Shown in pieces: positions 11,986 through 25,590 of a stretch of DNA of 64,000 nt. Location: the NCBI GenBank assembly GCA_963514005.1, contig OY740804.1:2356001-2420000 (forward strand), read 5' to 3'. The notes under the pieces are model-generated. The model saw only the letters and a list, made by a program, of their open reading frames with translations, did not search any database and was not told the origin of the DNA. Both the position numbers and the translations under genes were made by a program. Source of the DNA: Raja brachyura. Taxonomy: Eukaryota. Position 1 is the first letter of the stretch; every line of letters begins with the position of its first letter.

Positions 11986-12525
11986 TCAGTGGGAGATTGT
12001 CAGCTGGGTCAATAATTCACATACCGGATCATCAGTACTCTTGGACCAAACACAGGAATACATCCCTTTATCTTTCTCTTTTACGCCTGTCAGGAGCAAC
12101 GCGGCGTCCAGTTTCGAATGGACGCTTTCATGCACGAACTTCCAGCGGACATCAGGTCCCTCATAAGCCGCAAGCGTTTTACTATTGTAACTGGCAATTT
12201 CAACACCATCTTTTCTCCATTTAACAAACAAGGCACCATCGTAATATTTGGATGCTCTACAGGGCAGCGTAATAGAACCACCCGGAGATGCAACAAGCTC
12301 CTTCATTTTAAGCGTTGTTAGGATATGACTGAATGCAGCAGAATCTGGCTCGTTCATGCATCTTGGAAGCTTTTTAACGTTGACTTGCCGAGGAGCCCGT
12401 GCGTTCCACCCGGGCAAGTTTGCTTCCTCTCCCCATTCTCTGGAGATCGGACCTGTTCCAGTTCCGGAGACTTGCCACACCATCTCCACAAGGACCATGA
12501 ATCCTATCCGTCTCTGCAGTCCCAT
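11986..12525 (-). CDS. Predicted secreted single Ig V-set domain protein, copy A (179 aa)
   Basis: Signal-like N-terminus. ITLPC (C89), VKWRKDG (W103), DAALLL-x-GV-x-E-x-D-x-G-x-YSC (C158). Stop directly after the G strand, no TM segment. Splice acceptor ttgtttcacccacag 4 nt before the ATG. Confidence 0.85.
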   Translation of the reverse strand: MGLQRRIGFMVLVEMVWQVSGTGTGPISREWGEEANLPGWNARAPRQVNVKKLPRCMNEPDSAAFSHILTTLKMKELVASPGGSITLPCRASKYYDGALFVKWRKDGVEIASYNSKTLAAYEGPDVRWKFVHESVHSKLDAALLLTGVKEKDKGMYSCVWSKSTDDPVCELLTQLTISH

Positions 12526-13102
12526 GTTCCTGTGGGTGAAACAACCTTATTGCAACTCAGTAGGGTTCATGATGACATTCTCTGAACCCGCCCAGAGTTG
12601 GGGAACCGAGAACCAGAGGACATTTGTTTAAGGTGAGGGGGGGAAAGATTTAATGGGAAACTGAGGGGTGACTTTTTTACACAAAGGGTGGAGGGTGTTT
12701 GGAACGAGCTGCCGGAAGAGGTAGTTGAGGCAGGTACTATCACAATGATTAAGAAACAGTTAGACAGGTACATTGATAGGGCAGGATTAGAGGGGTAAGG
12801 GCCAAACGCAGGCAGGTGGGTCTAGTTTTGATGGGACAAGTTGGTGGGCGCGGGCAAGTTGGTGGGCGCGGGCAAGTTGGTGGGCGCGGGCAAGTTGGGC
12901 CGAAGGTCTCGCTGTATGACTCTATGACTCCATCACTTGTCCCACCCCGGTCATTCCTCCTTCTCCCTGGTCCTGTCTAGCAGAAGGTACAGAAGCTTGA
13001 AAGCGTGCACCACCAGACTCAGGAACAGCTCCTTCCCCTCTGCTATCAGGCTTCTGAACTGGGGGAACAGTGAACAGAGACAATCCCACCCCCATCACTC
13101 AC

Positions 13103-13220
13103 AGACACTTGAAGGATCCACTTGGGTGGTTACCAGCTCCGGAGTCTCCACACAGGGTGACGAGGCCGGTCTTATCTCCTGCCGTCGCTCGCTCCTTTTA
13201 TACCTACTCCAGCTGCCAAT
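13103..13220 (-). promoter_or_regulatory. Putative promoter and non-coding exon 1 of V-domain gene A
   Basis: TATAAAA at 13202-13196, CCAAT at 13216-13220, donor ct|GTGAGT at 13102. The same elements are conserved upstream of copy C. Confidence 0.65.
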
Positions 13221-13589
13221 GGCCAACCAGGCGCCCCACACATCCTGCTTGTGTCTCCACCACGTCTGTCCCAGCCACGCCACGTCACCACCACAGCCCT
13301 GGCACCTGCGCTGGTTTCACAGTTTATACTCAGCAGTGCGGGGAGCCAGTGTCACCTCTCCCCGATCAACCCCCCTCAACCTGTAACCTACCCCCTGCCC
13401 ACTGCTGTTCCACAAGTCGCCGGTCAGGAGAGAGTTGAAGTGGGGAGTGGTGACCACAGACAGAGAATATCGGTCGGCCCAGGACTGGGTTTGTCATGGC
13501 CCCAGTAAACCCCAGGGAGGAACGACAGTCGGGTAATTTCAGAAATCAACTTTATTCAGAATAAAAAATAGACACAACACAAACCGTGT

Positions 13590-13805
13590 GAAAATAGACA
13601 ATAGGTGCAGGAGCAGGCCATTTGGCCCTTCGAACCAGCTCCACCATTCAATGTTATCATGGCTGATCATCCCCAATCAGTACCCCGTTCCTGCCTTCTC
13701 CCCATATCCCCTGACTCTGCTATCTTTAAGAGCCCTATCTAGCTCTCTCTTGAAAGCATCCAGAGAACCGGCCTCCACCGCCCTCTGAGGCAGAGAATTC
13801 CACAG
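13590..13805 (-). mobile_element. CR1 3' end fragment
   Basis: Near-identical to the CR1 3' UTR at 1190-1395. Confidence 0.8.
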
Positions 13806-22329: not shown

Positions 22330-23157
22330 CAAATCAAATCAAATCAAATCAAATCAAATACGTTTATTTGTCATTGCACATCAACTGTACAACAAAATTT
22401 CATGTGCATCCCCTTCAATGGTAAACAATAAAAGACACGGGATAAAAAGATTAAAAAAAAGAACAAAACACAATAACACAAACAACCATTTACTCTCACA
22501 TTTACATTTACTACAAGATCAATGCATAAAATAAGTAATAGATAATAAAAAATGCACATTATATTGCACATTCTAGCAGACAAATTTTTATTTGCGCCCT
22601 GAATTGTGTAGTGTTGCCCGTAGTGTTATCTGTTTAAGTTAAGTTCTCTAATGGCACGTGGGTAGAAACTGTTAGTTAGTCTGCAAGTGCGGGCCTTCAA
22701 AAACCCGTATCGCCTCCCAGAGGGCAGCAGAGTGAAAAGGTGGTTGGCAGGGTGGGATGAGTCCTGTGTGATGTTTGTCACCCGGCGTAAACATCGGGCC
22801 TTGTAAATGTCTTCCAGGGAGGGTAGTTGAGCGTTTGTGATGCTCTGTGCTGTTTTAATAACCCTCTGTAGTGCCTTCCTTCCTTCCAGCCACAGTGCAG
22901 CTAGCAAACCACACCAGGATGCCATAGGAGAGGATGCTTTCCACGGCGCACCGGTAGAAGGACAGCAGCAGCTGCTGTGAGACGTTTGCTCTCCGCAGAG
23001 TCCTCAGGAAATATAGCCGCTGCTGTGACTTCTTTACGAGAGTGATGGTGTTCACTGCCCATGTAAGGTCCTGGGAGATGTATGTGCCCAGAAACTTAAA
23101 GTCAGTGTCTCTCTCCACCATGTCTCCTTTGATGTAAAGAGGAGCAGGTTCTTCTCT
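22330..23157 (-). mobile_element. Rex1/Babar-type non-LTR retrotransposon 3' fragment
   Basis: FKFLGTYISQDLTW...KKSQQRLYFLR...FYRCAVESILSY...LQRVIKTAQ...SHPANHLFTLLPSGRRY; AATAAA and a (TTTGA)n tail at 22330-22358. Confidence 0.8.
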
Positions 23158-24353
23158 CAGACATGAGAGGCATAGATAGGGGAGATAACCAGAACCAATT
23201 TCCCAAAGGGTTTGGAGAGGGTGCAGAAGAGGTTTCCCAGAATTATGCCTGGATTGGAGGCTGTTAGTTTGGCTGTAAAGGAGTGGGGGGGGGGGGAGGG
23301 ATTGAGGAAGAGACGGTGGTAGGGAGGGAGAGGGGGAAATTGGGGGGGGGGGGGGTGAGGAGGGAGAGTGGGGGAGGAGGGGGAATAGAAGGAGGGGGGG
23401 GTGGTTGACCCGACAATTACATCACAATGGGATCTCAGCTGCCAATCAACAGTGTTGAGGTAAGCTCCAGCCAGTGCAATGAGAGATTTCTTACATTGTT
23501 GTGAGGAGAGGTAGGGAGTGGAGGTGAGGGAGGGAGTGACTGAGGGTAGGGAAAAGGAGAGGGAGAGAGAGGTGATGGAGGGAGTGGACATAGGGAGGAG
23601 GAGAGGGGCGAGAAGGAGGAGAGTGAAGAGGAGGGGGAGGGAGTGTATGAGACTCGCCTGCGCAGTTGTGGGCTATGGGTGAGTGGTGGAAAATTACATT
23701 GGGGGAACGGGTACATATCAATGGAATCTCATTTAGATTTCTTGGGAGGAGGTTTTTCATTGTGGAGGGTGAAAAAGGGGAGAGGTTTTATTTACTCCTT
23801 TCTCATTTACAAAATAATTACAATTGTGGGGAGGGGTGGGATTGGGGGGGAGCTCCCCGTTTCATTGATTTTACACCGATTTTTCCACCACCACGCACAA
23901 GCAGCACAAGAAGCGACAAGACAGACACCATTTTATGCAGAAGTGTGTTCAGCTCTGTCTGAACAACTAATCTTGTGTGTGGACTCGATAAGAAGATTTC
24001 ATGTCATTGAGTGATACAGCATGGAAACATGGAAATGCCTATTTTGGCCCAACTTACCCACATTGGCCAACATGTCCCAGATACGCTAGTCCCACCTGTC
24101 CGCGTTTGGTCCATATCCCTCCAAATCTGACCTATCCATGTTCCCGTCTAACTGTCAGGATAGTTTCTGCCTCAATTGCGATGGTTGGCCAGAGCCAGAC
24201 GTGGTGGAGACACAAGCAGGATGTGTGTGGCGCCTGGTTGGCCGCTGGCAGCTGGGATGACGTTGTTCTTGTTAAACGTTAACGGCTGATGCAAGGACAC
24301 GTTTGGCAGAGGGTGGAGAGGTCACAGCTGACTCCGGCTTCGTGGGAGGCAGT

Positions 24354-24503
24354 GATTGGTTAAAAGTACGTGAGCGCAGGCAATGAAGCTCAGGAGAAGC
24401 CGGGAGTAGGTATAAAAGGAGCGAGCGATGGCAGGAAATGTGAACAAGACCGGCCTCGTTACCTTGTGTAACCACCCTGTGGATCCTTCAAGTGTCTGTG
24501 AGT
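24354..24503 (+). promoter_or_regulatory. Putative promoter and non-coding exon 1 of V-domain gene C
   Basis: ATTGG at about 24355, TATAAAA 24411-24417, donor GTGAGT 24498-24503. The matching acceptor AG is at 25051-25052. Confidence 0.65.
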
Positions 24504-25056
24504 GATGGGGGTGGGATTGTCTCTGTTCACTGTTCCCCCAGTTCAGAAGCCTGATAGCAGAGGGGAAGAAGCTGTTCCTGAGTCTGGTGGTGCGCGCTTT
24601 CAAGCTTCTGTACCTTCTGCTAGACAGGACCAGGGAGAAGGAGGAATGACCGGGGTGGGACAAGTGATGGAGTCATAGAGTCATACAGCGAGACCTTCGG
24701 CCCAACTTGCCCGCGCCCACCAACTTACCCGCGCCCACCAACTTGTCCCATCAAACCTAGACCCACCTGCCTGCGTTTGGCCCTTACCCCTCTAATCCTG
24801 CCCTATCAATGTACCTGTCTAACTGTTTCTTAATCATTGTGATAGTACCTGCCTCAACTACCTCTTCCAGCAGCTCGTTCCAAACACCCTCCACCCTTTG
24901 TGTAAAAAAGTCACCCCTCAGTTTCCCATTAAATCTTTCCCCCCCTCACCTTAAACAGATGTCCTCTGGTTCTCGATTCCCCAACTCTGGGCGGGTTCAG
25001 AGAATGTCATCTTGAATCCTACTGAGTTGCAATAAGGTTGTTTCACCCACAGGAAC

Positions 25057-25590
25057 ATGGGACTGCAGAGACGGATAGGATTCATGGTCCTTGTGGAGAT
25101 GGTGTGGCAAGTCTCCGGAACTGGAACAGGTTCGATCTCCAGAGAATGGGGAGAGGAAGCAAACTTGCCCGGGTGGAATGCACGGGCTCCTCGACAAGTC
25201 AACGATAAACAGATTTCAAGATGCACGGACAAGCCAGGTTCCGATCAACCCGAATCGATTAGCATAAATAAGCTCTATGCATCTCTGGGTGATATTATTA
25301 CGCTGCCCTGTAAATTAACTGGAAATTACAAACAACTCTCAAATGTTACTTGGAGAAAAGACGGTGTTATCATGGCCAGGTATGCTATTAAACCGTCTGA
25401 CAAACGTAAGCGATCTGATGTCCGTTGGAGGTTCGAGCATCCAGATGTCCATGTGAAAGAGGATGCCTCGTTGATCCTGGCAGGCGTACAAGAGAATGAT
25501 GAAGCATCATATTCCTGTGTCTGGTCCACTGAGGATAATAGGGTATGTGAAGTATGGTTCTGGCTGTCAATCAAAAAAAACTCCCACTGA
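25057..25590 (+). CDS. Predicted secreted single Ig V-set domain protein, copy C (177 aa)
   Basis: First 49 aa are 48/49 identical to copy A. ITLPC, VTWRKDG, DASLILAGVQENDEASYSC. Four conserved Cys. No TM segment. Confidence 0.85.
   Translation: MGLQRRIGFMVLVEMVWQVSGTGTGSISREWGEEANLPGWNARAPRQVNDKQISRCTDKPGSDQPESISINKLYASLGDIITLPCKLTGNYKQLSNVTWRKDGVIMARYAIKPSDKRKRSDVRWRFEHPDVHVKEDASLILAGVQENDEASYSCVWSTEDNRVCEVWFWLSIKKNSH

Follow-up and report, generated by a model that had tools for sequence, protein, structure and literature searches.

A batoid family of predicted secreted single-V-domain proteins, likely descended from nectin domain 1, within a chitinase array of the skate Raja brachyura

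The 64,000-nucleotide window considered here (Raja brachyura, contig OY740804.1, positions 2,356,001 to 2,420,000) contains three open reading frames (ORFs), named copies A, B and C, each encoding a leader, a propeptide and a single immunoglobulin (Ig) variable-type (V) domain. The batoid family to which they belong is real, actively diversifying and apparently undescribed. The favoured reading, to which a probability of about 0.55 is given, is that of a skate and ray family derived from domain 1 (D1) of the nectins, predicted to be secreted, whose members would act as soluble pathogen decoys or recognition molecules.

The domain likely descends from nectin/PVR domain 1, judging from sequence motifs and structural models. 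In the AlphaFold model, residues 70-173 form a V domain with confidence and residues 1-53 are without structure (predicted local distance difference test score, pLDDT, 68.7; residues 1-53 and 59-65 below 50). The top Foldseek hits are PVR D1, nectin-2 and nectin-1, with CAR D1 and JAML close behind, while the structural neighbours of an Atlas model include nectin-2, nectin-3, nectin-4, TIGIT and CD96, and sequence searches of the PDB return nectin-2, PVR, JAML and CD226. Nectin interfaces carry a (V/I)(S/T)Q motif. PVR-family dimers use AX6G as a lock and T(Y/F)P as the matching key (PMC10486284). The deciding evidence comes from a distant full-length homologue of the electric ray Narcine bancroftii (XP_069798310, named 'nectin-1-like'), which keeps both AX6G and TYP, in exact register with six V exons of nectin or CD200 type from the R. 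brachyura genome, and groups with these exons at 91/83 support. In the skates, the T(F/Y)P key has been lost in all 24 proteins compared, the AX6G lock is kept in four and a GX6G variant is found in five more; A, B and C have neither lock nor key. In copy C the corresponding nectin-motif positions read L94-S95-N96, A107-S114 and T158-E159-D160. The first-pass annotation had been unable to assign the family to a named gene, and here the present placement differs, since motifs and Foldseek assign it to nectin/PVR domain 1 and not to MDIR/CD300, B7, VpreB or NITR. Descent is not membership, however: the further C2 domains, the transmembrane (TM) segment, the tail and the phase-1 donor of the nectin family are all missing, translation stopping after strand G. 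The family thus fails as a nectin on architecture and on motifs, and a receptor orthologue of such a form does not exist. As a separate observation, divergent V exons resembling PVR/nectin-2 are found in the genome as well, at least three in number (L067, L068 and L069, on C1034, C51 and C882), which suggests a separate expansion of membrane nectins.

The mature domain, including positions of its binding face, is under positive selection according to codon models. These analyses and the trees below used 11 of the 16 copies found in the genome, five near-identical duplicates being left out, and the codon model employed matches the M0 likelihood of IQ-TREE. For the mature part, the ratio of non-synonymous to synonymous rates (omega) under M0 is 1.52, and M2a places 39% of sites at an omega of 2.8 (likelihood-ratio test, LRT, 48.3). 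Overall, omega is significantly above 1 (LRT 9.2). The signal is kept when only nine intact copies with 112 gap-free codons are considered (33% of sites at 2.8, LRT 31.5), and also within the five-copy clade holding A and C (LRT 38.6). The mature parts of L011 and L012 differ by 23 non-synonymous changes versus a single synonymous one. Copy C and its orthologue in run X6 are separated by 18 changes in the contig, 10 of the 12 listed being non-synonymous, and four of the five changes listed between A/B and X2 are non-synonymous as well. Fifteen sites reach a posterior above 0.9, five of them inside nectin-motif positions (S95, N96, P113, S114 and E159), and three more of them (Q93, D115 and K116) adjoin those positions.

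The 5' part of these genes behaves very differently. Between A and C, only 9 of 555 aligned intron positions and 3 of 147 positions of the prepro region differ, whereas the mature region shows a dS (synonymous divergence) of 0.26 and a dN (non-synonymous divergence) of 0.49; the comparison of 9/555 in the intron with 18/82 at mature synonymous sites gives a p of 3e-11. In 60-nt windows, identity stays at 92-100% from about -640 to +140 and drops thereafter. Trees built from the 5' block and from the mature region reject each other (approximately unbiased, AU, test, p 7e-49 and 2e-41), and locus L003 combines an intron of the L011/L012 type with a mature domain from the other clade. Mature clades cross species boundaries (L008 with P0002, 100/100; L015/16 with P0007, 96/93; L011-14 with P0005/6, 97/95). 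Residue 21 of the leader, on the other hand, is Gly in 14 of the 15 clustered R. brachyura copies (a stop codon in the fifteenth) and Ala in all seven Leucoraja proteins. Because the intron is as alike as the leader, the mature dS reaches 0.26 and the two trees conflict, the sameness of the 5' block is likely the product of gene conversion among copies.

Precursors of conotoxins, defensins and frog peptides combine a conserved prepro region with a variable mature part, and the invariant prepro region of the skate family had been interpreted along the same lines, as constraint on the protein. The pattern of divergence is indeed the same and likewise has a basic processing site as its boundary, but the intron, mostly repeat debris, is equally alike, and the omega of the prepro region, at 0.73, is indistinguishable from 1 (p 0.41, with low power), so this interpretation is not upheld. 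The skate family further departs from those precursors in its Ig fold, in a sameness that extends through intron and promoter, and in showing no sign of toxin function. Conversion reaches as far as Q47-N49, and this boundary coincides with the putative cut site, as would be expected if conversion into the mature part were selected against. A capture of the 5' block from a chitinase gene was also considered and rejected, as no match outside the V genes was found in 11 stretches of 10 kb plus the window, repeat fragments aside.

Regarding the size of the family, the first-pass annotation had described three genes. The three V-set ORFs are borne out, each above the Pfam V-set cut-off, and so is the family, but it counts 16 loci: a protein search of the genome (42 candidates scored) and a DNA search with the leader both gave 16 matches, at identical loci. 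As every match of the DNA search is a family locus, an origin of the leader from a repeat is ruled out. Fifteen loci lie at C24:2.19-2.38 Mb, where scanning the 240-kb cluster with a profile added no further copies, and one (L002) lies at 27.49 Mb. This last copy, at C24:27.486 Mb, is isolated and intact, 25 Mb from the cluster; a deletion of seven propeptide residues leaves RAPR, and its mature domain is very acidic (isoelectric point 4.3, versus 8-9.5 in most copies). In the 90 kb around it, a scan covering 74 of the 98 candidate ORFs gave no Pfam hit. Across the family, premature stops are absent from 14 of the 16 copies and present in two, and the reading frame of two continues into an altered C-terminus. 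A and B represent one recent inverted duplication (3258 nt, 96.7% identity), and their coding sequences (CDS) differ by 2 nt. The earlier comparison of A with C was reproduced in full, with 48 of residues 1-49 identical, three nucleotide differences in the first 147, and 43 of 85 residues identical in the V core. Variation does fall in the loop resembling complementarity-determining region 1 and in the C'-D loop, as noted before, although it is not confined there: the D-E region, the F-G loop and the linker vary too.

In other species, the databases hold six clusters of Leucoraja erinacea proteins, a seventh Leucoraja member and one protein of Rhinoraja longicauda, all named 'uncharacterized', besides the Narcine homologue. 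Among the best 150 of 2538 profile hits, only the skate proteins and the Narcine homologue match the whole profile, the others matching the V domain only, through many repeats. Orthologues from sharks or bony fishes were not found among 7 hits from 88 candidates, 9 from 7105, 8 from 1482, or the best 150 of the 2538 profile hits, the two extra hits of the search of 7105 being multi-V teleost proteins; these searches rely on shared words or on rank, longer forms lie outside the word-index search, and absence is not established by them. No published description of the family was found in the literature searched, to which subscription papers and supplements did not belong.

The gene consists of a TATA box, a short exon 1 ending in a GTGAGT donor, an intron, a CACAG/GAAC-ATG acceptor and the coding exon. 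The claim that the whole CDS lies in one exon is therefore correct for the CDS, but the gene itself has two exons, the upstream one probably non-coding. TATAAAA is present in 14 of the 16 copies, the short exon with its GTGAGT end in 15, and the CACAG acceptor, four bases before the ATG, in all 16. An ATG lying 17 nt from the TATA box, used as the start in RefSeq models of Leucoraja, would precede the usual transcription start site. Because of this position, and since just 5 of 14 copies have it in frame (it is missing or out of frame in the other nine, A and C among them), exon 1 is probably untranslated. Copy B begins mid-intron and, as TATA box, exon 1 and donor are missing, is probably promoterless; none of the listed contigs spans its 5' junction at 17321, a result that is uninformative. 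Upstream of the TATA box of copy C lies an exact CCAAT-N9-CCACG, a candidate motif that resembles the consensus of the endoplasmic reticulum stress response element (ERSE-I). The same motif is found near the TATA box in 7 of the 14 TATA-bearing copies (C and six others), and copy A has kept its TATA box while the promoter segment that bears the motif in C is deleted. Further exact motifs in reverse orientation are found upstream of L011-L014 (C24:2213476, 2246584, 2275590 and 2306822), and are perhaps relics of inverted promoters.

At the 3' side, the absence of a usable downstream donor stands. A donor-like GTATGT word is present at the strand-G Val-Cys codons of A, B and C, in phase 0, where its use would remove strand G, and it is not among the best-scoring donor sites of the other 13 copies. 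No conserved phase-1 donor follows strand G in the family copies, each of which runs to its stop; a G/GT (G/GTAAG-type) donor closes the six genuine V exons of nectin or CD200 type in this genome. Nor does any hydrophobic stretch appear beyond residue 50 (best 19-residue window 0.75-0.86), and among sites up to about 1.1 kb from the 3' ends the one most like a recombination signal sequence (RSS) has five mismatches. RefSeq models of two other skates and of the electric ray likewise stop without TM or C domain. A germline multigene family with a single V domain, free of TM or C domain and with a rapidly diversifying mature part, is thus supported.

The leader has a basic N-region and an 11-residue hydrophobic core, which makes a signal peptide plausible but atypical. 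The convertase-like site proposed earlier is partly supported, as a putative site in its minimal form: of 25 proteins, 23 carry R-x-x-R ahead of the first Cys, at a distance of 7-13 residues that falls into three registers (10 in most, 13 in two Leucoraja proteins without the usual site, and 7 in Narcine). Because P-R/Q is common to skates and Narcine, a Pro-Arg-cutting protease may be considered as an alternative to a convertase. Cysteines 56, 85, 154 and 164 are invariant in 16 aligned proteins and all four are kept in Narcine; the conservation of Cys56 and Cys164 together with the canonical pair suggests a second disulfide, Cys56-Cys164.

Taken as a mechanism, the favoured reading would run from a TATA promoter and a short exon 1, as observed in most copies, to a single coding exon that provides leader, propeptide, V domain and stop. 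The signal peptide would be removed and a proprotein convertase or trypsin-like protease may then cut at R-x-x-R, releasing a domain of 120-138 residues with the predicted second disulfide. The mature domains form old lineages common to skate species, with estimates of omega above 1 that include nectin interface positions, and promoter, intron and leader would be exchanged among copies up to about Q47-N49, presumably by gene conversion, as the conflict between trees indicates. Such exchange would give diverse binders one shared cassette for expression and export. The ligand would be foreign, for instance a viral attachment protein or a microbial adhesin that uses nectin-type receptors, and might be met at a secretory epithelium. 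A bolder and less probable version would have skates recruit the virus-receptor domain of a nectin for a germline-encoded set of soluble binders, activated by proteases and comparable to antibodies, in which gene conversion swaps one cassette of promoter, leader and propeptide among a dozen old binding domains. The genes would be duplicated, and their products secreted, along with chitinases and chi-lectins, the two components together making up a mucosal defence, a functional counterpart in a vertebrate of the protochordate VCBPs.

Of this last idea, the joint duplication is seen in the genomic context. All 67 GH18 matches of the genome lie within C24:1.72-2.45 Mb, and the V genes are interleaved with chitinase genes in duplicated units of 31 kb with 97-99.5% identity, so that V genes and chitinases have been duplicated together. 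This array comprises at least 17 GH18 catalytic exons, of which 10 show DxDxE, two keep the Glu with an altered middle Asp, and five lack the Glu. Among the genes of these five exons is the one that lies tail to tail with copy C in the window; it carries DxDxQ and is likely an inactive chitinase-like lectin. A fusion of the V domain to CBM14 was ruled out, as the CBM14 exon nearest to C is part of that GH18 gene, which runs in the opposite direction.

Several points weigh against the favoured reading. CAR-like, butyrophilin-like and Polypterus V domains, picked for their high scores, reach 38-48 bits versus 28-37, and nectins are not singled out by profile scores alone; JAML and CD226 head the list of PDB sequence hits, and CAR D1 stands near the top in Foldseek. 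The short predicted signal peptide contains Glu14 (11-residue hydropathy 2.06). The full R-x-K/R-R is found in none of the 25 proteins, two of them have no R-x-x-R either, and 7-25% of shuffled sequences yield that of Narcine by chance. Site tests may be inflated by recombination, of which the model assumes none within the mature part, and for many pairs of distant lineages omega is close to 1. Finally, selection driven by pathogens and by reproduction is not separable from these data.

This leaves reproduction as an alternative driver, though an improbable one: the same secreted, nectin-derived and conversion-shaped family could serve as seminal, clasper-gland, oviducal or egg-jelly proteins, shaped by sexual selection or gamete recognition. 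Nectin-2 and nectin-3 act in the Sertoli-spermatid junction and the GH18 chi-lectins include the oviductal OVGP1, both of which count in its favour, as do the fast change between close species, evident in the mostly non-synonymous differences from X6 and X2, and the loss of the catalytic Glu in 5 of 17 neighbouring GH18 exons. The many old paralogous lineages shared across species, however, would better fit a repertoire for varied targets than a single pair of gamete receptors. The nectin-D1 fold, the several PVR/nectin-2-like exons of the genome, the lock and key of Narcine, and the AX6G or GX6G of some skate proteins are also what could be expected from soluble modulators of host nectin, TIGIT, CD96 or CD226, comparable to LILRA3, LAIR2 or soluble CD155. 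This appears unlikely, given that the key is lost in every skate protein, that A, B and C have no lock, and that interface positions are under positive and not purifying selection.

Two further explanations are less probable still. The copies ride on the 31-kb units together with chitinase genes, B has no promoter, two copies show stops and two an altered C-terminus, and many deep pairwise omegas approach 1, all of which would suit weakly constrained hitch-hiking duplicates whose hypervariability is old, relaxed divergence seen against homogenised flanks. An omega significantly above 1, both overall and by site, the 23 to 1 excess between L011 and L012, and the keeping of reading frames and of four cysteines in skates and electric ray have largely refuted this already. 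Slightly more improbable yet is a membrane-bound product, with the V exon spliced to distant C2 and TM exons, or anchored as a type II protein through an upstream exon. The RefSeq models of Leucoraja and Narcine do carry about 30 extra N-terminal residues (a 31-residue extension), exon 1 is in frame in some copies, and A, B and C have the GTATGT word, but the position and poor conservation of the exon-1 ATG, a 19-residue hydropathy of merely 1.05, the lack of a conserved phase-1 donor after strand G, and the fact that the leader is found in no longer protein among 164 fetched all speak against it.

Table 1. Positions of the family members and of neighbouring features within the window.
Feature	Position	Strand	Remarks
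Copy A, CDS (L009)	11986-12525	-	179-residue ORF
Copy A, protein layout			Residues 1 to about 23 predicted as signal peptide; propeptide ending at R46; linker with extra Cys56; V-set with extra G-strand Cys; stop
Copy A, intron	12530-13102	-	GTGAGT donor at 13102, CACAG acceptor ending at 12530
Copy A, TATA box and short exon 1	13103-13202	-	TATAAAA at 13196-13202; no ATG
Copy B (L010), 3' intron part and CDS	17321-18235	+	Intact CDS at 17696-18235, 179 residues; inverted duplicate of A
Inverted duplication relating A and B	9649-20602		Arms 9649-12862 and 17359-20602, 96.7%
ERSE-I-like candidate motif	24341-24359	-	Exact CCAAT-N9-CCACG upstream of the TATA box of C
Copy C, TATA box and exon 1	24411-24497	+	TATAAAA at 24411-24417; ATG 17 nt from TATA, out of frame
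Copy C, intron	24498-25052	+	Largely fragments of high-copy repeats
Copy C, CDS	25057-25590	+	177-residue ORF
Copy C, codons 1-49	25057-25203	+	Predicted signal peptide, propeptide, R43-A-P-R46/QVN; 3' end of homogenised block
Copy C, divergent mature region	25204-25590	+	Cys56, V-set strands 70-173, Cys85-Trp99-Cys154 core, Cys164
Predicted polyA signal of A	11681	-	First AATAAA after stop
Predicted polyA signal of B	18540		First AATAAA after stop
Predicted polyA signal of C	25865-25870	+	First AATAAA after stop
Multi-exon GH18 gene	about 29643-45158	-	C-terminal CBM14 exon; DxDxQ
Retroelement, presumably DIRS-like	3531-7731; 16534-17274	-; -	Reverse transcriptase and tyrosine-recombinase ORFs
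Long interspersed nuclear elements (LINEs)	49066-51928; 1931-3007; 39668-40156	+; -; -	Endonuclease and reverse transcriptase ORFs; one long, nearly intact
Tandem repeat array	55413-56880		About 1.4 kb; period near 28 or 56 nt

Among the remaining features of the window (Table 1), a fragment related to the DIRS-like retroelement adjoins the 5' breakpoint of copy B.

Several known systems resemble this family in part. The nectin/PVR group (nectin-1 to -4 and PVR, with TIGIT, CD96 and CD226) shares its V-set fold, provides the top structural hits, and has its lock and key in the ray homologue and its lock in some skate copies. Unlike that group, the skate family has no C2 domain, TM segment or tail, joins leader, propeptide and V domain in one exon, bears an extra Cys pair, and forms a tandem array with conversion in which A, B and C have lost lock and key and those positions diversify. 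Rearranging Ig and T-cell receptor (TCR) V segments differ in that the present genes have no RSS and encode strand G in the exon itself, followed by a stop. Genome-encoded soluble proteins of the Ig superfamily also include the PSGs and soluble CEACAMs. Carp SITR, LILRA3 and LAIR2 (PMC3031540) are multigene germline secreted Ig proteins derived from membrane receptors, and the analogy with the skate family would lie in a role as decoy or modulator; SITR has, according to the same source, two Ig domains and a CD300-like V domain with WCR, in contrast to the one nectin-type V, propeptide and R-x-x-R found here. For MDIR/CD300/pIgR, too, that text describes a multigene V-domain family in skates, the MDIRs being activating or inhibitory receptors. 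Compared by motif with what is given there, the skate family studied here has neither WCR nor the C-C' Cys pair, its extra cysteines sitting before strand A and in strand G. The VCBPs of amphioxus and Ciona (PMC4757023, PMC4008424) are likewise secreted germline V-domain proteins, in which a single chain joins V domains to a chitin-binding domain at its C-terminal end; here the V genes adjoin chitinases bearing CBM14, and the V protein itself has no chitin-binding domain.

The finding also carries a warning against taking conserved prepro regions for protein constraint: intron and promoter are here some 14 times more alike than the synonymous sites of the adjacent exon. Being small, tolerant of extensive change at the surface and provided with a second predicted disulfide, the domains would be easy to express and test. 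If the favoured reading is true, skates and rays would possess a soluble, diversified nectin-type family of vertebrates, a non-rearranging repertoire beside the Ig and TCR system of cartilaginous fishes, whose ancestral lock-and-key state is still seen in the electric ray.

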